From the NCBI GenBank assembly GCA_012840015.1, contig DUMF01000026.1, positions 21,176-85,175 on the forward strand: 64,000 nt of DNA, given 5' to 3'. Within the stretch, counting starts at the first letter, position 1; every line of letters starts with the position of its first letter. The DNA comes from Bacillota bacterium. Its GTDB lineage: Bacteria; Bacillota; Sulfobacillia; DUMF01. Shown piece by piece: positions 6,943-60,660 of the stretch. The notes below the pieces were generated by a model. That model searched no databases, was not told the origin of the DNA, and saw only the letters and a list, made by a program, of their open reading frames with translations. The position numbers were made by a program, and so were the translations under genes.

Positions 6943-7714
6943 CCTCCCGCCCCAGATACGCTTCGATCACCGCGGGGTTGGAGCGCACCTCCTGGGGTGT
7001 GCCAGCCGCAATGGTCTTACCGAAGTTGAGCACCACAATGCGATCACAGATGCTCATGACGACGCCCATGTGGTGTTCTATCATGAGGATAGCGAGGGAA
7101 AACTGCTTCTGAATTCTGGCAATGGTCGAAATCATCTCCTCGGTCTCCACAGGGTTCATGCCGGACGTGGGCTCGTCGAGCAGGAGTATCCTGGGGGATA
7201 GCGCCAGGGCTCTGGCTATTTCGAGCTTGCGCTGGTGACCATACGGCAGCGCAGTGGCGCGCTTTCCGGCATCCGCCTCCAGCCCAAGCACCCGAAGAAT
7301 CTCCATGGCGGCACATCGGGCACGGGATACCTGGCGGGAATAAGGTCCCGCGTGAGTCAGGCTCGTCAGTACGCTGTAGCCGCTGCGGGCCTCGAGAGCT
7401 ACCATTACGTTTTCGATGACTGTAAGCTCCTTGAATAGTCTGATGTTCTGGAACGTCCTGGCCACTCCCTTGAGGGCGATTAGATCCGGCCTGAGGCCGG
7501 TTACCGGCTCGCCCATCAGGGTTATCTGCCCCGAGTCGGGTACGTATATGCCGGTGATCAAGTTGAACACCGTGGTCTTGCCCGCCCCGTTGGGACCGAT
7601 TAGCCCGACCACCTGCTCGGCTCCAAGGCTGAGGTTGAAATCCTGGACGGCCTTGATCCCGCCGAAAGCCTTACTTACATTTTTAATTTCCAGAACGCCG
7701 TTCAAACCGATCAC
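6935..7714 (-). CDS. livG: Branched-chain amino acid ABC transporter ATP-binding protein LivG
   Basis: GPNGAGKTT Walker A, LSYGHQRKLEIARALA signature, and C-terminal EAYLG. Confidence 0.85.
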   Translation of the reverse strand: MIGLNGVLEIKNVSKAFGGIKAVQDFNLSLGAEQVVGLIGPNGAGKTTVFNLITGIYVPDSGQITLMGEPVTGLRPDLIALKGVARTFQNIRLFKELTVIENVMVALEARSGYSVLTSLTHAGPYSRQVSRARCAAMEILRVLGLEADAGKRATALPYGHQRKLEIARALALSPRILLLDEPTSGMNPVETEEMISTIARIQKQFSLAILMIEHHMGVVMSICDRIVVLNFGKTIAAGTPQEVRSNPAVIEAYLGREDE

Positions 7715-8565
7715 CTCGCCCCCAACGAGGAGTCCTCCCGCCGCCAGAGCGTTAGCTCCCTTCCGCCCAATAACCCTTCAGGCCGTACGATCACCGTCAG
7801 AATGATGGCCAGCCCGTAGATGGTAAGCCTCCACTTCGCCAGCAACCTGAAAACCTCAGGTAATGTCACTAAAATGAAAGTCGCAATGGTGGGGCCCGTC
7901 ACCGAATTCAATCCGCCCAGCAAGACCGTAATGGATAGCTGAGACGACATGGCGATATCGAACATGTTGGGCTGCAGGTAAGTCAGGTAGTGCGCCAGGA
8001 GACCCCCGGACAAACCACACAGGACGCCGCTCACCACGAAGGCGGTCAATCTCGTCCTGTGCACGGGTATTCCCGAGGCGCTGGCCGCGATCTCATCATT
8101 CTTGACACAAACGCACGCCCGGCCCACAGGCGAGTACGCCAAGTTCCAAACCAATATGAAGGACAGAATACTCAGTGCCAAAACCCAAGGCAAGGTGGTC
8201 TGCAGGGGAATAGCCGAGTACCCTGAAGCCCCGCCGGTAAGGTCCTTCAGCATTATGGTGGAAATCCTCACTGTCTCGCCAAAGCCTAAGGCCACGATGG
8301 CGAAGTAGGTTCCCTTTATCCTAAGAGTTGGGATGCCTATCCCGAAAGCCACCAGCCCGGCCACCAGCGCACCCAGAGCGAGGCTCACCGGAAAAGGCAG
8401 CGACAGCCGAACTGACGAGATGGCGCTGGCGTATGCTCCAAGAGCCACGAAGCCCGCGTGGCCGAAGGAAAAATTCCCTGTGAAGCCCGTGAAAAACGCC
8501 AGACCAAGCACTGCTATGAGGTTGATCCCGGTTATTATGCATATACTTTCCAGGTAGCTGAGCAT
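7711..8565 (-). CDS. livM: Branched-chain amino acid ABC transporter permease LivM
   Basis: Polytopic membrane protein with LSFGHAGFVALGAY and LGGLNSVTGP motifs of LivM/BraE permeases. Confidence 0.8.
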   Translation of the reverse strand: MLSYLESICIITGINLIAVLGLAFFTGFTGNFSFGHAGFVALGAYASAISSVRLSLPFPVSLALGALVAGLVAFGIGIPTLRIKGTYFAIVALGFGETVRISTIMLKDLTGGASGYSAIPLQTTLPWVLALSILSFILVWNLAYSPVGRACVCVKNDEIAASASGIPVHRTRLTAFVVSGVLCGLSGGLLAHYLTYLQPNMFDIAMSSQLSITVLLGGLNSVTGPTIATFILVTLPEVFRLLAKWRLTIYGLAIILTVIVRPEGLLGGRELTLWRREDSSLGAR

Positions 8566-8578
8566 ATCCTTATCCCCT

Positions 8579-9395
8579 CTATGCCTTTTCCTCTACCTGC
8601 TTTCCCAAAAGCCCCTGAGGTCTGAACAGCAAGACCAGAATTAACAGCAGGAAAACCACCAGGTTACTGGCCTCAGAGGATACGTAAGCGGTGACGAAAG
8701 TCTCCAGCAGTCCCACGCCAAGGGAAGCCACTACGGCCCCGGCCAGACTCCCCAGGCCGCCGAAGACGGTCGCAATGAACACTTTGTTGGTCATGTACCA
8801 CATCTGAGGGTACACGGTATACTTGATCCCCAATATGACGCCGGCGAGCCCCGCTGCTCCCCCGGCTATGAAGAATATGAGGCCCAGGAGCACGTTGAGG
8901 TTGACTCCCATCAACTCGGTGGCCTCCAGGTTACCCGAGGCTGCGCGAATCGCAGCCCCCTCCATAGTGTTCTGTATCCCATATGAAAACACGACAAGAA
9001 AAGCCATCGTCAGCACTAGAGCCAGCAAGTCTGGTACTCCCATACTCAGGCCACCTATCGGAATAGGAGTGGTCCTCAAGACAGGCGGGTACACCAGGAA
9101 AAGCGGACCAATCACGTTTATTACCAGGTTCTCGAAGAACGTGCAGAATCCCATCGAAAGAGCCAGGTAGTATATCTTGGCGATCTTTTTCTGGCGTAGA
9201 AACCTATATCCGAAGAACTCCATCAGCGAGGACACAAGTCCTCCGCCCACCACCGCCACGAGAAGGCCCAGGGAGAAGGACGGTATGAGAATACACGAGA
9301 AATAGCCCAGGTATGCAGCTAGCATCATGGTGAACCACGGCTAAGGAAGCGTAGATGCTGCCTATGGATAAACCGTTCAGAATCTGCTGAACCAT
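8579..9395 (-). pseudogene. livH: LivH permease, disrupted (about 20 codons lost plus frameshift after SIYASLA); no livK upstream
   Basis: N-terminus MVQQILNGLSIGSIYASLA is in one frame. The rest (MMLAAYLGYF...) is in another, preceded by an in-frame TAG. The conserved LGYTMVYG..NFAHGD block present in the intact paralog at 49175 is absent. Confidence 0.6.
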
Positions 9396-9502
9396 GAACC
9401 CTCCCCCGGCCACCCGCCGCAATAGCCAGGGGAGGAAACGCAACCATCCACACCAATCGCTCGAGTTCACTCTACTTGCCCAGGAAAGGGAAAGTGGTGG
9501 TT

Positions 9503-9540
9503 GCAGAAGAAAAATAAAATTAGCGGGTATTATTACCCGC
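9503..9540 (-). terminator. Rho-independent terminator after the AT-rich cassette
   Basis: Hairpin gcgggta-ttat-tacccgc at 9523-9540. It is followed on the minus strand by TAATTTTATTTTTCTTCT. Confidence 0.5.
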
Positions 9541-9556
9541 ACAAATTTGGTTAATT

Positions 9557-9988
9557 TTACCTGTTTCTGCGCTGCGTTAGGTTTTTATGTAGCTCGAGGA
9601 GGTACTCGTAATCCCTATCGTGCTTTATTTTGTTGCTCTTGTGGGGCAGCGTTCTCAAGGCTATTTCCATCAAAGCGTCGTTTCCATTTAGAAAATATGC
9701 GGTCACTAACTCGTTGAAAGTCTTGATGTCTTTGAGGCCCATGGCGCGAGTGATTTTGGAGTATATTGTTTGCGGTGTTACCTTTTCCTCTTCGGCTATT
9801 GGGGGTATTATTTCTTCCGACAGGACTCGGTTCAAGAGCTTGTAATCGTCTTCTTTCAATTCCAACGCAAGCAAGGGACTGGGATAAAGAAAGACCTCCA
9901 ACTCCGAAAGGGCTGTCATGATTCGCCCGAAATGACGGGTTTTCTTTGATAGCCATTCTTGATTGATGACAGAAAAGTTTTCTTGCAT
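9557..9988 (-). CDS. Hypothetical protein, possible HTH, in AT-rich cassette
   Basis: 143-aa ORF in a visibly AT-rich stretch. It contains EEKVTPQTIYSKITRAMGLKD, a helix-turn-helix-like segment. No recognisable family. Confidence 0.45.
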   Translation of the reverse strand: MQENFSVINQEWLSKKTRHFGRIMTALSELEVFLYPSPLLALELKEDDYKLLNRVLSEEIIPPIAEEEKVTPQTIYSKITRAMGLKDIKTFNELVTAYFLNGNDALMEIALRTLPHKSNKIKHDRDYEYLLELHKNLTQRRNR

Positions 9989-10061
9989 ATTTCACGTAGC
10001 GGCCCCTTCCTGCCGCTAAATTCCTCCTTTCATCCGGTTTGCGACAAGCTTTGTCTTTCTG

Positions 10062-10751
10062 CTAGTTATCTGCTAAATCATTAGCATTAAGTTCAAGGTC
10101 TTGCAAGGTGAAATTATTTAAAGCGTAGGTTACGTCTACCGGCTTATCTCCTCTCACCTCATAAACGTGCCCGTTAATATCGCGGCGGAAAGAGCAATGG
10201 AGTCTTTCGTTGCTGTCTTTCTTCCTTCCCTCCAAGAGCTTTGCCATCTGTTTCCGGGAGAAAAGTAGGAAATATGGCTCGGCATCGTTTATGGCAAAAA
10301 GGAAATAGTCAAGCTTATTAATGTCCTCCTCAAAGATTGCACTCCAAGAAGCATGCTTAAGGTTGGCGTAAACCTTGCTGAAGTAGAAGTTAATTTTCTG
10401 GACCATATACCCCTTTTCAACGATGATGTCTGCATCCTCGGATCTGCTGCCCCTGCGGGCCACGACATTTTCGTTGTTTTCAATAAGCAACCTTATTGCT
10501 TTTTCCAGGGCTTCGCTGCGAGACATTGAGCCAAGGAAGACCTGTTCCTCAACTTCATTCTTTTTATCGCCATCTTTTTGGGTGGCAGGCAGGTAGCCGA
10601 TCAGGTCTGCAACTGTATCATCAAGTTCAGAAAAAACAATGTCATCGAGACCTGTTTTTTGGGTTTCGTCTTCTGGTTTTTCAATCTTGATGGCCAACCT
10701 TCCGGTGATATTGATACTTACAATGACTTCTCTTTCTTTGCTCACCGCCAT
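10062..10751 (-). CDS. Hypothetical protein (unknown family) in AT-rich cassette
   Basis: 229-aa ORF with an acidic N-terminal half and a C-terminal half containing DYFLFAINDAEPYFLLFSRKQ. No family recognised. Codon and GC usage differ from the flanking DNA. Confidence 0.5.
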   Translation of the reverse strand: MAVSKEREVIVSINITGRLAIKIEKPEDETQKTGLDDIVFSELDDTVADLIGYLPATQKDGDKKNEVEEQVFLGSMSRSEALEKAIRLLIENNENVVARRGSRSEDADIIVEKGYMVQKINFYFSKVYANLKHASWSAIFEEDINKLDYFLFAINDAEPYFLLFSRKQMAKLLEGRKKDSNERLHCSFRRDINGHVYEVRGDKPVDVTYALNNFTLQDLELNANDLADN

Positions 10752-11085
10752 GAGTTTACCTCCTTTTGGTTTAGTCTAATCCAATTGTACATGACAATCA
10801 TACGACTGTCAATCGTCCACCACATGGTGACCACCAAGATTTGCTTTTGAAAATAGAAACAGCCCTTCGCTTTTGCTTCCTGTACAAAACGGCCCCTTTT
10901 GCACAGAGAGCAGGAAATTCGCCCGACTTCCGCACTCTGACAACAGTTTTGGGCCTTTCTTGCCCCTTTTTGAAACCGCAAACCCTTGAGAGTTCTAGGG
11001 GTCATATTCGAAATGGCCAATGTAGTGACGACTGGTGTAGCTAGTGGGTATTGCGTTAGGCTCTGTGGTGTGTTAGCACAGTGGC

Positions 11086-11373
11086 ATGTACATCCGCAAA
11101 ACAGTCCGCAAGACCAAAGACGGCAAGGAGTACATCAACTACCTCCTGGTGGAATGTGTCTCGATTCCGAAGGGACCCAGGCAGCGCACAATCTGCTCTC
11201 TTGGGCCACTGGCCCCTGGTCCTGCCGAAGAATGGTGTGCGCTTGCCAAAAAGCTCGAATCTGCACTCTCCAGCCAGCTTTCCATTGTTGAAGAAGATGA
11301 TCCGCGGATTCGTGAGATAGTCGAGCGTGTGAAATCACGCAAGCACAGGTCACCAATGTCAACACCGGCTTAA
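11086..11373 (+). pseudogene. IS1634/IS4-like transposase, N-terminal 95 aa only (truncated by IS21 insertion)
   Basis: MYIRKTVRKTKDGKEYINYLLVECVSIPKGPRQRTICSLGPL resembles IS1634-family N-termini (MFIR.T..K..GK.Y....LVES...G). The ORF ends exactly at the IS21 left terminus. Confidence 0.5.
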
Positions 11374-11445
11374 AATTCCCCACTTTCAACGGAATGAAAT
11401 TCCCCAATTTCACCGGTGCAAATTCCACACCTCCCATTAGAAGCG

Positions 11446-12228
11446 TTAGCCGTGTTCACCTCCCTCCACAGCTGGGTGCGACGGCATTGGAACCCCAGCG
11501 CGAAGCTTGTCCTTGAGCCGGTAGCTCTGGCCGCGGATGTTGATGGTAACGGAGTGGTGTAGAAGGCGATCAAGCAAGGCGCTGGCTAAAATGGGATCGC
11601 CGAGCAGTTGTCCCCAGTTACCGTAGCTCACGTTGGAAGTGATGATGATCGACCCCTTCTCATACCTCTCTGCCACGACCCGGAAGATATGGGCCGCGTC
11701 CGCTGGCTCGATGGGCAGATACGTCATCTCGTCCAGTATGAGGAGCTTTGGCCGCGTATAGAGCTTCAGGCGCCTTTCAAACCGGTTCTCAAGGTAGGCC
11801 TTTCTTAGATCCGAAATCATTTCCTGGGCCGTGATGAAGTAGGTGCTGATGCGCCGCTTGACGGCTTCTATTCCCCAGAGCGACTGCAAGGTGCGTCTTC
11901 CCGACCCCGGGTGGGCCCAGAACCAGGATATTGGTGGCATTGTCAACGAAACCCAAGGTGGCCAGTTCCCTTACCTGGCGCTCGTCTATCGAGGGCTGAA
12001 ATGAAAAGTCGAACTCCCCGAGCGTGCAGCCAGCTTCATGAACGCAGTAGTATACCTCTGATAACGATATTCCATCTCCGCATCAAGCAAGCGGGCGATG
12101 AACTCGGTGTAGGTAAGCGATTCCCTTGCCGCTTCCTCGGCATGAGAAGGAAGCAAATCCGCCATTCGGTTAAGGCCTAGCTCACGCAGCAAGGCATCTG
12201 CTCGGTCAAGCGCCATGGCTTCGTTCAT
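11446..12228 (-). pseudogene. istB: IS21 helper ATPase IstB, frameshifted between N-terminal and Walker-A regions
   Basis: N-terminal piece 12228-11986 (LRELGLNRMADLL...TYTEFIARLLDAEMEYR). C-terminal piece 11946-11446 starts at HPGSGRRT and has LILDEMTY and ASALLDRL. Confidence 0.7.
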
Positions 12229-13457
12229 CTGCCCATCACCAACCGCTCGTACACATCAAGCGGCCGAACCTCCACATCGGGCGCCAGCTGGTGCGCGTAG
12301 ACGGTCTGCCGGAACCGTGCGGAACCCATGGGAATACCGCGGTAGTGCCTGCGGTCCACGACCGTCCGGTAACGCCCTCTCATCACCTCGTGAGTGGCTA
12401 CCACTTGGCCGGCGTGTTCAACGGTCAGGACTCCCTTTTCGTTCTCCCTGACGAGCACTGTATGGCCTACCAGGTTCCAGGGAACGGAGTAACGGTTCGA
12501 GTACCAGGAGATAAAGCAGTCTAAAGATACCCGCCGGGGTTCGATTTCCTCCAGTAAGAATCGTCCGCCCGGCAGGGGTTGCAGGTTCTCCTCCTGCCAC
12601 CTTTTTAAAGGGACCTCGTGGGTGGTGCCATGCACTCTCACGTTGGCCACTGCATCCCGCCAGGCCAAGGCCTGCCGGTTGAGATCATCTATGTCGGTGA
12701 AGTTCACCGGCCAGAAGCTATCTCGTATGTAGCGAATGGGTCGCTCGATCTTTCCTTTCGTCCGACTGCGGTAGGGACGGCAGGCCCGGGGAGTGAAGCC
12801 GTAGTGCTCGCAGAAGCGGAGGTACCCAGGCTGCCAATTGACTCCGTCCTCGTCGCGGGAAAGCACAAGGCTTGAGCAGTTGTCGCTAAGCGCTTCCACA
12901 GGGACACCTCCGAAGAACTCCAGAGCGTTGCGCAGTCCACGTAGTATATTCAATTGATCTGACCTTGGGATGAATTCTACGTAAAGCATGCGGGAGTAAC
13001 AGAGAGTCATGGCGAAACAATACACCGTGGACACCGTATTGTTTGCGTCAAGATACTTGAACATCCCTAAGTCGAGCTGGGCCTGCTGGCCGGGCGGAGT
13101 CTCGAACCTGCAGGTAGCTTTCCCTGCAAGTGGTGGACGGTAAGGTCTCATGAAGTCGCGCAGGATGGTGATCCCGCCCTGGTAGCCACGTTCGCGTATT
13201 TCTCGCAGCAGTCGGGCGGCGTTAAAGACTCCGGCCTCCATGCGCTCGAGGAGGTAGTCCTTGTGAGCATCCAGTTTGCTACCTCTTCTTGCTCCCTGCG
13301 CTTCACCTGGGACCCGCCTGAACGCTTCGTCGGTAACTACCTTCCTGATCGTCTTGCGGTCATGTCCGGTGCGCCGTGCCAGTTCGCTGATACTAACTCT
13401 CTCACGATACGCTTTTCTGATGTCCAACATTTCCTCACCCCTTAGCATTCTGGGCAC
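12225..13457 (-). CDS. istA: IS21 transposase IstA
   Basis: 410 aa with an N-terminal HTH (ISELARRTGHDRKTIRKV) and a DDE region. Adjacent to istB. Confidence 0.85.
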   Translation of the reverse strand: MPRMLRGEEMLDIRKAYRERVSISELARRTGHDRKTIRKVVTDEAFRRVPGEAQGARRGSKLDAHKDYLLERMEAGVFNAARLLREIRERGYQGGITILRDFMRPYRPPLAGKATCRFETPPGQQAQLDLGMFKYLDANNTVSTVYCFAMTLCYSRMLYVEFIPRSDQLNILRGLRNALEFFGGVPVEALSDNCSSLVLSRDEDGVNWQPGYLRFCEHYGFTPRACRPYRSRTKGKIERPIRYIRDSFWPVNFTDIDDLNRQALAWRDAVANVRVHGTTHEVPLKRWQEENLQPLPGGRFLLEEIEPRRVSLDCFISWYSNRYSVPWNLVGHTVLVRENEKGVLTVEHAGQVVATHEVMRGRYRTVVDRRHYRGIPMGSARFRQTVYAHQLAPDVEVRPLDVYERLVMGR

Positions 13458-14052: not shown

Positions 14053-14470
14053 TTAGTTCGCGACGTTTCGCTTCCAGGTGCTCCCTGGGTGGTAAGCGAG
14101 ACGCTTCATACATCTCGGCTTCGATGTGGTAGCGGTGCAGCACGTAAAGCCACTGTTCGAAAAGTAAGCCAGCACGCAGATAAGGACGCGACCGCGCACA
14201 CGTGTTTGGTTGTAGTGGTAGATGAGCCGGAGGCGGATGAAGTCTTTGATCTCACGGAAAGCATTTTCGACCTGTAGGAGGTTCTTGTGGCCGGTCACCA
14301 CCGCTTCAGGTTCAAGGTCGCTGTTCGTCTTTACGAGAAACTTCCCGTCTCGGAGGCTCTCCTCTGCGATAGCAGCTTCGTTACGCTGGAAGCCGAGTGT
14401 ACCTTGGCCATCGTAAACAACATCGAATAACAGTGTTATGCCTTTCTTCTCTAGGATCCTGGCTAGCTTA
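14053..14470 (-). pseudogene. IS4/IS1634-like (DDE_Tnp_1) transposase C-terminal fragment
   Basis: LLQVENAFREIKDFIRLRLIYHY...RVLICVLAY matches the conserved C-terminus (W.VE..FR.LK..L.LRPIYH....RI.GH.FICFLAL). The frame opens after a TAA. Upstream frames are broken. Confidence 0.5.
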
Positions 14471-52539: not shown

Positions 52540-53040
52540 GCGCAAAGGCTCAAGCAGCTGGTCCGCGTACCCCAATGGGTTGCCCGGACCCCGCAGGTTC
52601 AGGAAGGGCGAATTATACTGTTCGACTCGGGGTGAACTACAAGAACTAGTATGCAGATCTTGCGCGGGGTTGCATTTTTCGGAGAGCCCGGGCGTGCGCG
52701 AAGGCGTACGCCCATTTTTCGAGAGTGTATAATGGCAACTCTGAACGTCTCTCGTGGGAGACAGCAGCTTGTAGCCAACGAGGGTGTCCGGGTATCTACC
52801 AAAACCAGTCCCACACAAGGCCGCAAGGCATTCTTCCTTGACGTACGGAAGGGCAGTCTGATTCATTGGCTAGGGTTGCTCGGGCCCAGGCGCAATCTAG
52901 ACCCGCGGCTCATCATGATCACAGTCCGAGCCATTGGCCACAACGACTTGGGCCACACCTACTTACCAGCGCGAACCCCACTCATCGGCTCCGTGGTTTC
53001 GAGAGAAATCCACGATTGTTAGTTTGGCTTCCTCCCGGGC
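52540..53040. repeat. Degenerate duplicated segment (copy 1), about 85-90% identical to 60430-60660 plus 61853-61995
   Basis: 52806-52910 aligns with 60551-60660, and 52915-53035 aligns with 61853-61995. Looser similarity extends leftwards. It contains an N-terminal remnant (IVDFSRNHGADEW) of a QueG/RdhA-like gene on the minus strand. Confidence 0.5.
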
Positions 53041-60429: not shown

Positions 60430-60660
60430 ATTGTACAGTAGGCGTCTGACCCGATAACAACTTGGGCGAAGGCTTTGTGAATGGCAAGAAGGTACGTAGC
60501 CAACGCTGGCGTCGGGGCCATCCCTTCAAAAGCGCAGGCCACGACTAAAACCAGTTCCACCCAAGGCCGCAAGGTATTCTTCCTTGATGTACGGAAGGGC
60601 AGTCTCATTCATTGCGTCAGCCAGGGTTGCTCGGGCACAGGAGCGATCTAGACTCGCGGC
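60430..60660. repeat. Duplicated degenerate segment, copy 2 left half
   Basis: About 88% identity to 52806-52910, with weaker similarity extending to about 60430. Confidence 0.45.

Follow-up and report, generated by a model that had tools for sequence, protein, structure and literature searches.

The window described here is the whole stretch of 64,000 nucleotides (64 kb) analysed from contig DUMF01000026.1 of an uncultured member of the Bacillota. It contains two adjacent genes on the minus strand, ORF1 (10062..10751; 229 aa) and ORF2 (9557..9988; 143 aa), and the evidence supports a self-contained, horizontally acquired two-gene operon made up of a promoter, ORF1, ORF2 and a terminator. We propose that this module is an accessory operon derived from a mobile element, in which a DNA-directed effector with a PD-(D/E)xK fold is accompanied by a partner that is probably an autoregulator, and we put the chance that this account is right at about even.

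Boundaries, inheritance and selection

Both open reading frames (ORFs) are real genes under purifying selection. Relative to the copy in a Moorellaceae metagenome-assembled genome (MAG; locus L001, proteins P0002 and P0006), dN/dS is 0.28 for ORF1 and 0.235 for ORF2 at dS 0.55–0.76. DNA identity between the window and L001 starts abruptly at the −35 hexamer of the promoter and ends with the ORF2 stop codon; neither the flanking DNA nor the terminators are related. A third pair was found on 4.5-kb metagenomic contigs (L017/L018), where P0007 (246 aa) is followed 103 nt downstream by a 175-aa ORF2-like protein. Identity of this pair to that of the window is about 35% for ORF1 and about 44% for ORF2, and dN against L017 is equal for the two genes (0.587 each). 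An earlier reading made from the letters alone (the sequence-only reading) had proposed a search for the pair in other genomes, and the pair is now known in three lineages, namely the window, the Moorellaceae MAG and L017/L018. Searches for further copies through ORF2 gave only the Moorellaceae lineage among genome contigs and no match among metagenome contigs, plasmids and phages.

The composition of the module is foreign to its surroundings. Its GC content (9523–10812) is 43.8% against a mean of 54.4% for the whole window (sd 2.5% over 1290-bp windows), making it the lowest-GC 1290-bp window in the 64 kb. The GC profile lies at 0.42–0.46 over ~9500–11000 compared with 0.52–0.63 in the flanks, and GC at third codon positions is 0.50 and 0.56 in the ORF1/ORF2 pair compared with 0.64–0.73 in neighbouring genes. 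The sequence-only reading had described two co-oriented ORFs of 229 and 143 aa in about 1.3 kb of markedly AT-rich DNA, and both descriptions hold. Its figure of roughly 58% GC for the surroundings fits the adjacent liv genes (54–58%) but is slightly high for the window, and its coordinates left out the promoter (10784–10812), which is part of the unit. No terminal repeats or target-site duplications were found around the window copy, so the module is not a discrete transposable cassette. The mobile two-gene module envisaged earlier is thus borne out as far as horizontal acquisition, sharp boundaries and recurrence of the pair are concerned, but not as a transposable unit.

The ORF1 family and its predicted fold

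ORF1 is a divergent member of a sparse, unnamed protein family. Among 5.8 billion proteins its close homologs were ORF1 itself (GXX40_07975, from a Firmicutes MAG), a relative with 74% identity (P0002, Moorellaceae MAG) and two relatives with 53% identity (P0003 and P0004) that cover the C-terminal two thirds only. In an exhaustive HMMER profile search over 1.84 billion cluster representatives, 66 proteins scored at E ≤ 1e-3, with 23 reaching ≤ 1e-10; P0007 is also a homolog. Neither ORF1 nor ORF2 matched anything in Pfam, NCBIfam, PADLOC or PHROGs, in agreement with the earlier statement that no family was recognisable. The 54 aligned members of the ORF1 family gave no convincing Pfam match and were negative in NCBIfam and PHROGs. 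A lone weak match to the B3 domain (E = 0.0013 in 1 of the 54 members) was dismissed as chance.

Family members are mostly 190–215 aa long. Typically a short coiled-coil helix at the N-terminus leads through an acidic, low-complexity linker into a C-terminal domain that is conserved. The coiled-coil helix of most members matches GCN4, Jun and Lpp in a PDB profile search. Members of the paired subfamily have a different, acidic N-terminus in place of this coiled coil, and their gene is followed by a second one: the ORF1-type N-terminus is found only in P0001, P0002 and P0007, and ORF2 follows ORF1 only in the paired lineages. In the window this N-terminal region (aa 1–74; 10530..10751, minus strand) is acidic and predicted to be disordered, with an isoelectric point (pI) of 4.3 and a net charge of −8 over the first 75 residues, and a predicted local distance difference test (pLDDT) score below 50 over residues 1–73. 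The division of ORF1 into an acidic N-terminal and a conserved C-terminal part, already apparent to the sequence-only reading, is matched by selection, with omega falling from 0.50 over the first 70 codons to 0.19 in the C-terminal domain.

At the level of fold prediction, the C-terminal ~145 residues of ORF1 adopt a restriction-endonuclease-like PD-(D/E)xK fold. The AlphaFold2 model has a pLDDT of 70–88 over residues 75–217 (10101..10529, minus strand), with a helix at 78–92 followed by strands. When this model was compared with the PDB by Foldseek, ranks 1–38 all belonged to the PD-(D/E)xK fold class and comprised Hjc, I-Ssp6803I, MepB, RecU/PrfA and the nuclease domain of SPARDA, with MGME1 and HincII lower. 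The best E-value was 3e-3 (Hjc, 1gef), probabilities reached 1.00 and target-normalised template modelling (TM) scores reached 0.62, the best of them to I-Ssp6803I (2ost; 0.59–0.62). The predicted fold contains the alpha-beta-beta-beta-alpha-beta core of the superfamily. Foldseek searches of models of both proteins, suggested by the sequence-only reading, thus placed ORF1 in a fold class but returned nothing significant for ORF2. A literature search on MepB and endonuclease returned nothing relevant.

Residues conserved in the family are S125 (54/54 members), R200 (53/54) and W136 (52/54), together with K/R126, F152, R78, R103, G106, D148, K176, D179, H185 and E198. Such a non-canonical conserved set would suit a module that binds DNA or a ligand without catalysis, or else a nuclease whose site has been relocated. 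In the alignment, N121 occurs in five members, all of which have D108, and no member with G108 has N121. Positions 108 and 121, expected neighbours in the beta2-beta3 hairpin, may form a compensatory pair.

ORF2 and the control region

ORF2 is a helical, nearly orphan protein inherited together with ORF1 in three lineages. Just two homologs were found: P0006, encoded beside P0002 (71% identity), and the 175-aa product of L017, encoded beside P0007 (44%). The N-terminus of ORF2 is conserved from the first ATG. The model of ORF2 is all-helical (pLDDT 69), with helices at residues 15–28, 47–68, 72–82, 88–101, 105–112 and 120–142. Foldseek of this model against the PDB and BFVD gave nothing better than E about 1.

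Residues 47–101 (9686..9850, minus strand) form a candidate helix-turn-helix (HTH) of LuxR/GerE or resolvase type, suggested by the model helices and by weak but concordant matches. An hhalign comparison aligned ORF2 55–99 with GerE 23–67 at P = 0.017 and a probability of 2.7%; the DNA-binding domains of LiaR and VraR were weak Foldseek matches (E 5–7); and a local hidden Markov model (HMM) search of 2769 ORFs matched the C-terminal HTH of a plasmid serine recombinase in register (E = 0.019). These three weak results, none significant alone, share one register in which residues ~55–82 (IPPIAEEEKVTPQTIYSKITR) would correspond to HTH helices 2 and 3. The C-terminal 40 residues of ORF2 are basic.

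The operon is preceded by a sigma-70-type promoter, TTGACA-17 nt-TACAAT (10784..10812, minus strand; −35 at 10812..10807, −10 at 10789..10784), that agrees with the consensus at 11 of 12 positions and is the top site in the region. Near-consensus promoters, read by eye, also lie upstream of the homologs in L002 and L017. The spacer between the two boxes, the classical position of a repressor operator, holds a 20-bp palindrome, TGACAGTCGTATGATTGTCA (10792..10811). The window copy has two mismatches between its arms and occurs nowhere else in the 64 kb, where chance would give 0 matches. At the equivalent place in L001 the palindrome is perfect (10+10, TGACAGTCAT/ATGACTGTCA). We infer that the palindrome is a putative operator bound by ORF2.

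ORF1 has a ribosome-binding site, AAGGAGG (10759..10765, minus strand), 7 nt ahead of its ATG, which is kept in L001. A Shine–Dalgarno (SD)-like sequence, GAAAGGAGG (10023..10031, minus strand), lies 34 nt 5' of the ORF2 start and is kept in all three paired loci. Between it and the ORF2 AUG is a predicted hairpin, UAGCGGC-loop-GCCGCUA (9997..10018, minus strand). A hairpin is predicted at the same position in 3/3 paired loci, with fold z-scores that are not significant, and its stem in L017 differs in sequence (GGGCGG/CCGCCC versus GCGGC/GCCGC); three sequences are too few for covariation statistics. The region spans 9997–10031 in the window, ~10759–10795 in L001 and ~3634–3666 in L017. Together the SD-like sequence and the hairpin could be a split or structured translation-initiation region, and we suggest that the hairpin shortens the effective SD–AUG distance or gates ORF2 translation.

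An intrinsic terminator closes the operon (9513..9540, minus strand). It reads GCGGGTA-ATAA-TACCCGC followed by TAATTTTATTTTT, and its hairpin (9540..9523) consists of a 7-bp stem, in which 5 of the pairs are GC, and a loop of 4 nt, with a T-rich tail behind it. This clean rho-independent terminator, noticed in the sequence-only reading, was recovered by a terminator scan and is not conserved in L001. An Rfam search returned no family, and no tandem repeats such as ToxI-like arrays were found.

Genomic contexts of the ORF1 family

Most members of the ORF1 family are accessory "cargo" genes that stand alone in Bacillota mobile elements, and about half of the contexts have a site-specific recombinase within three genes of the member. 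On Rep3/ParA and Rep3/MobA plasmids a solo member sits next to an integrase or near ToxN, and in the Rep3 plasmid context a pair of C5-methyltransferase and EcoRII-C genes lies ~1 kb from the member. Members annotated "hypothetical protein" on 49–53-kb Bacillus subtilis plasmids and on pMiCAN82b of Macrococcoides canis adjoin recombinases, a methyltransferase and IS3, and one family member adjoins IS21. The B. subtilis plasmid protein WEY82917.1 is one of these solo homologs. On pMiCAN82b (L019, 1026–2452) only 2 nt separate the member from the next gene, which is unannotated, encodes 277 aa, does not resemble ORF2 and could be a different partner in another family branch.

Other members are found among phage and conjugation genes. 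In a Syntrophomonadaceae temperate phage the member lies just past the invertase and integrase genes; in a prophage (L024, 5284–7766) it sits between the prohead protease and major capsid genes; and in L026 (114–2076) it sits between TrbL and PrgI in a type IV secretion system (T4SS) operon. The L024 and L026 placements are unusual intrusions into conserved operons. In L022 (4103–6630), P0010 lies 336 nt downstream of and co-oriented with the Kiwa genes KwaB-KwaA, on an element that also carries integrase, HTH_17 and D5_N primase genes. The 53% relatives (L002, 10885–15688, also L003–L008) are convergent with a three-gene operon beside fliD/fliT that encodes proteins of 337 aa, 661 aa and 606 aa, the last with DUF2357 and PDDEXK_7 domains; we suspect that this operon is McrBC-like. 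The ORF1-family HMM weakly matches the 337-aa protein (E about 1e-3), in an alignment that starts in the coiled-coil N-terminus.

A local HMM scan of the window and of the loci fetched before L021, L022 and L024–L028 found ORF2-like ORFs only in the three paired lineages. In L021 and L022 no co-oriented gene follows directly 3' of the member, and in L024/25 the gene that follows encodes the capsid protein. Small genes lie near the member in L026/27 (PrgI) and L028. The L001 neighbourhood is rich in toxin–antitoxin genes (HicA, PIN), and no methyltransferase domains were recorded among the neighbouring genes called in L001 and L017.

Proposed function

In the proposed operon, ORF1 would have DNA as its target. 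It would bind particular structures or modifications, or it would be a nuclease whose active site has been relocated, and it may serve mobile-element conflict or maintenance, for instance through defence, anti-defence or exclusion. ORF2 would carry a LuxR- or resolvase-type HTH, bind the 20-bp palindrome and repress the operon. It may also be a partner of ORF1 through the N-terminus specific to the paired subfamily. The hairpin between the strong SD and the ORF2 start could tune ORF2 translation relative to ORF1.

Several results weigh against this account, beginning with the fold of ORF1. The fold call comes from one moderate-confidence model built on a 4-sequence alignment, and the Foldseek E-value is only ~3e-3. 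An hhalign comparison of the ORF1 family with Hjc, using a query sequence verified as 1gef, was not significant (probability below 1%), and PDB profile searches with ORF1 gave coiled-coil matches only and nothing for the folded domain. None of the 54 members matched the PDDEXK, Hjc, RecU or MepB families in Pfam, nor did NCBIfam give such a match. The 54 members do not share the canonical D...(D/E)xK catalytic motif: position 83 is D/E in 25/54, position 108 is G in 38/54 and D in 15/54, and positions 121–123 read K/N-F-Y where (D/E)-x-K is expected. That placement is the only register offered by hhalign, a non-significant one in which D108 of ORF1 pairs with the catalytic D33 of Hjc. DNA cleavage by ORF1 is uncertain because this motif is missing. 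E112-K113 was considered as a shifted catalytic pair and rejected since it is not conserved across the family.

The same caution applies to ORF2 and to the genomic setting. Pfam searches for an HTH at E ≤ 10, with full proteins and with isolated segments, were negative, and PDB profile searches with ORF2 found no HTH and only chance-level matches (E > 0.5). The candidate HTH segment is acidic (pI 4.7). The HTH-like segment named by the sequence-only reading therefore keeps some backing from the concordant weak matches but none from the Pfam and PDB sequence searches. The palindrome is found neither in the L017 promoter nor in those of solo homologs; since it is missing from the third paired locus, the case for an operator comes from just the two closely related loci. 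PADLOC-DB v2 gave 0 matches for ORF1 and ORF2, and the 54 family members gave just 3 stray weak ones (E 0.002–0.003). The association with neighbouring genes, which follows the pattern of accessory cargo in mobile-element hot spots, is anecdotal, drawn from about 14 contexts without statistics.

A bolder form of the proposal treats the ORF1 family as an undescribed PD-(D/E)xK-fold class with a relocated site (S125, W136, H185, E198, R200) that would act as a widespread single-gene conflict factor of Bacillota mobile elements, with a role in defence, anti-defence or exclusion. The ORF1–ORF2 pair would then be a regulated derivative, with ORF2 replacing coiled-coil oligomerisation and supplying DNA targeting and autoregulation. 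We regard this extension as possible but doubtful.

Alternative explanations

The solo insertions of ORF1 homologs between conserved mobile-element genes could also be produced by a free-standing selfish gene resembling a homing endonuclease, which would cut or target cognate sites that lack the gene; ORF2 would then be a lineage-specific regulator. Such a gene would account for members lying between phage protease and capsid genes and between T4SS genes, and it agrees with the top TM-scores (0.59–0.62) of the ORF1 model to I-Ssp6803I, a PD-(D/E)xK homing endonuclease, with the members' own strong promoters, with the foreign composition of the module and with the sparse, patchy distribution of the family. 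We nonetheless judge homing unlikely. The family shows no conservation of the canonical catalytic D and (D/E)xK, no presence/absence polymorphism was found at a defined target site, and the window and L001 copies lie in unrelated flanks with no recognisable common target. A related phage lacking the inserted gene was sought for comparison and none was found, nor was a comparable plasmid without the gene retrieved. No intron context was seen for the ORF1 family.

The nuclease-like fold of ORF1 and the proximity of members to restriction–modification (R-M) genes, to the DUF2357/PDDEXK_7 operon and to Kiwa could instead indicate a regulated restriction-like or defence effector. This might be a modification-dependent, type IV-like nuclease with its controller or a new two-gene anti-phage system, and the promoter palindrome is reminiscent of C-boxes. 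Adjacency to defence genes is, however, equally to be expected of anti-defence cargo or of whatever else is carried at these hot spots. The family lacks conserved catalytic residues, ~200 aa is small for a sensor plus effector, and the gene order is opposite to that of classical C-protein/restriction endonuclease (REase) operons. The sequence-only reading had also raised a defence pair, and there is no meaningful PADLOC match for ORF1, ORF2 or the 54 members that would make it a known one. An effector of this kind seems to us improbable.

A type II toxin–antitoxin-like pair, likewise raised at the outset, would make ORF1 a nuclease-fold toxin and ORF2 an HTH antitoxin that represses its own operon through the palindrome. 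The compact two-gene operon, the operator-like palindrome over the promoter, the co-inheritance of the pair in three lineages and the HicA and PIN genes around L001 are all compatible with it, and toxin-first gene order is known from higBA and mqsRA. Outside the three paired loci, however, every fetched ORF1 homolog is solo, with no ORF2-like gene in the loci scanned by HMM, which a toxin would not be expected to tolerate, and the reading is disfavoured because so many homologs stand alone. The catalytic motif is absent, searches of Pfam, NCBIfam, PADLOC and PHROGs matched no known toxin or antitoxin family, both proteins exceed the usual size of type II components and the palindrome is missing in L017. 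The toxin–antitoxin reading is therefore a poor fit and, in our estimate, decidedly unlikely.

That the module is a decaying remnant, or a set of spurious ORFs in AT-rich junk beside the insertion sequence (IS) pile-up, could be argued from its broken neighbours (the livH frameshift, a frameshifted istB and IS1634 fragments) but is effectively refuted by two intact ORFs with ribosome-binding sites, promoter and terminator, by dN/dS of 0.24–0.28 at dS 0.55–0.76 and by retention of the pair in three lineages.

Neighbouring genes

The operon lies between a broken livH and a real IS pile-up, as the sequence-only reading had it. Downstream, the Pfam match of the LivH-type permease ORF (8579–9328, minus strand) begins at profile position 37, with the first 36 positions missing. 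Within the livH region (ORFs 9204–9542 and 8579–9328, minus strand) the N-terminus (MVQQILNGLSIGSIYASLAV...) is encoded in one frame from ~9397 and the remaining 249 aa in a different frame from 9328. Because the N-terminus lies in another frame, the break is a frameshift within livH and not at the module boundary. The interruption reflects a frameshift accompanied by a small deletion, or else an error in the MAG assembly.

Upstream of the module are a frameshifted IS21 element (istA/istB) and an IS1634 fragment. In the IS21-family element (11446–13457, minus strand) istA is intact (410 aa, with rve and Mu-transposase C domains), and istB is split into two ORFs (11986–12228 and 11446–11946) and so is frameshifted. 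The stretch 11357–11406, possibly an IS end, has 86% matches to unannotated segments of many Bacillus plasmids. The IS1634-family transposase fragment (14056–14301, minus strand) matches NCBIfam profile positions 376–421 of 483. A 95-aa ORF (11086–11373, plus strand; MYIRKTVRKTKDGKEYINYLLVE...) resembles an IS1634-type N-terminus by eye and has no Pfam or NCBIfam match. No methyltransferase was present among the flanking ORFs scanned with Pfam (7711–9542 and 11086–13457). The sole long repeat in the window is a 71-nt direct repeat, 92% identical, at 52798–52868 and 60544–60614, 7.7 kb apart.

Significance

The fold superfamily and the phenomenon of cargo genes are already known. The family is unnamed in Pfam, NCBIfam, PADLOC and PHROGs, and its paired architecture is undescribed there. 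As it stands, the module is a well-delimited accessory operon of an uncultured Bacillota lineage, useful for annotation and not surprising. If the family functions in DNA targeting, it would be an unannotated fold-level addition to the restriction-endonuclease superfamily among mobile-element cargo. It is found at hot spots that also harbour Kiwa, R-M and McrBC-like systems and, if the proposal is true, would offer a compact candidate of ~200 aa for defence and anti-defence screens. The paired version provides an experimental handle, since it brings together a promoter, a candidate operator and candidates for both the regulator and the effector.

Comparison with known systems

With Hjc, RecU, I-Ssp6803I and MepB, ORF1 shares the predicted alpha-beta-beta-beta core and a likewise small domain of about 120–150 residues. 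Hjc and RecU act as dimers, and the coiled coil of most ORF1-family members suggests that they too may oligomerise. Unlike these enzymes, ORF1 has no sequence-profile relationship to the known types and no conserved catalytic D...(D/E)xK. In the ORF1 family the PD-(D/E)xK fold is also extended, by a coiled coil or acidic segment at the N-terminus and by a beta extension at the C-terminus.

ORF2 presents the pattern IA-E-x-x-VT-x-x-T-(I/V)-x-x-K-(I/L)-T-R-x-(M/L)-G-L in register with GerE 23–67 and with the HTH of a plasmid resolvase (HTH_7 type), and the 20-bp promoter palindrome is as expected for a dimeric HTH protein. It differs from LuxR/GerE and HTH_7 proteins in giving no significant match, in the acidic character of the segment and in extra helices at the N-terminus (~45 aa) and C-terminus (~40 aa), which carry conserved motifs of their own (e.g., LPHK-x-NK-x-x-HD-x-D-x-EY).

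The likeness to higBA and mqsRA consists of two co-oriented genes, a palindrome overlapping the promoter and horizontal acquisition. The ORF1 family differs from these in having mostly solo members, no toxin or antitoxin homology and no conserved catalytic motif; a toxin gene is obligatorily accompanied by its cognate antitoxin gene, but the loci scanned by HMM outside the paired lineages contain no ORF2-like gene. In classical C-protein/REase operons the small HTH-encoding C gene precedes the REase gene; here the HTH candidate lies downstream, so that the order is reversed, and the Pfam-scanned flanking ORFs contain no methyltransferase.

Phage morons and other cargo genes offer a further comparison, with both "moron" and "cargo" denoting genomic position and not function. 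The window copy departs from them in being chromosomal, in lacking recognisable element borders and in being paired with ORF2. The ORF1 family occupies the same positions (prophage, temperate phage, plasmids, T4SS operon and an integrase-bearing element). Like morons, its members have their own promoter, to which the window copy adds a terminator and a foreign GC content.

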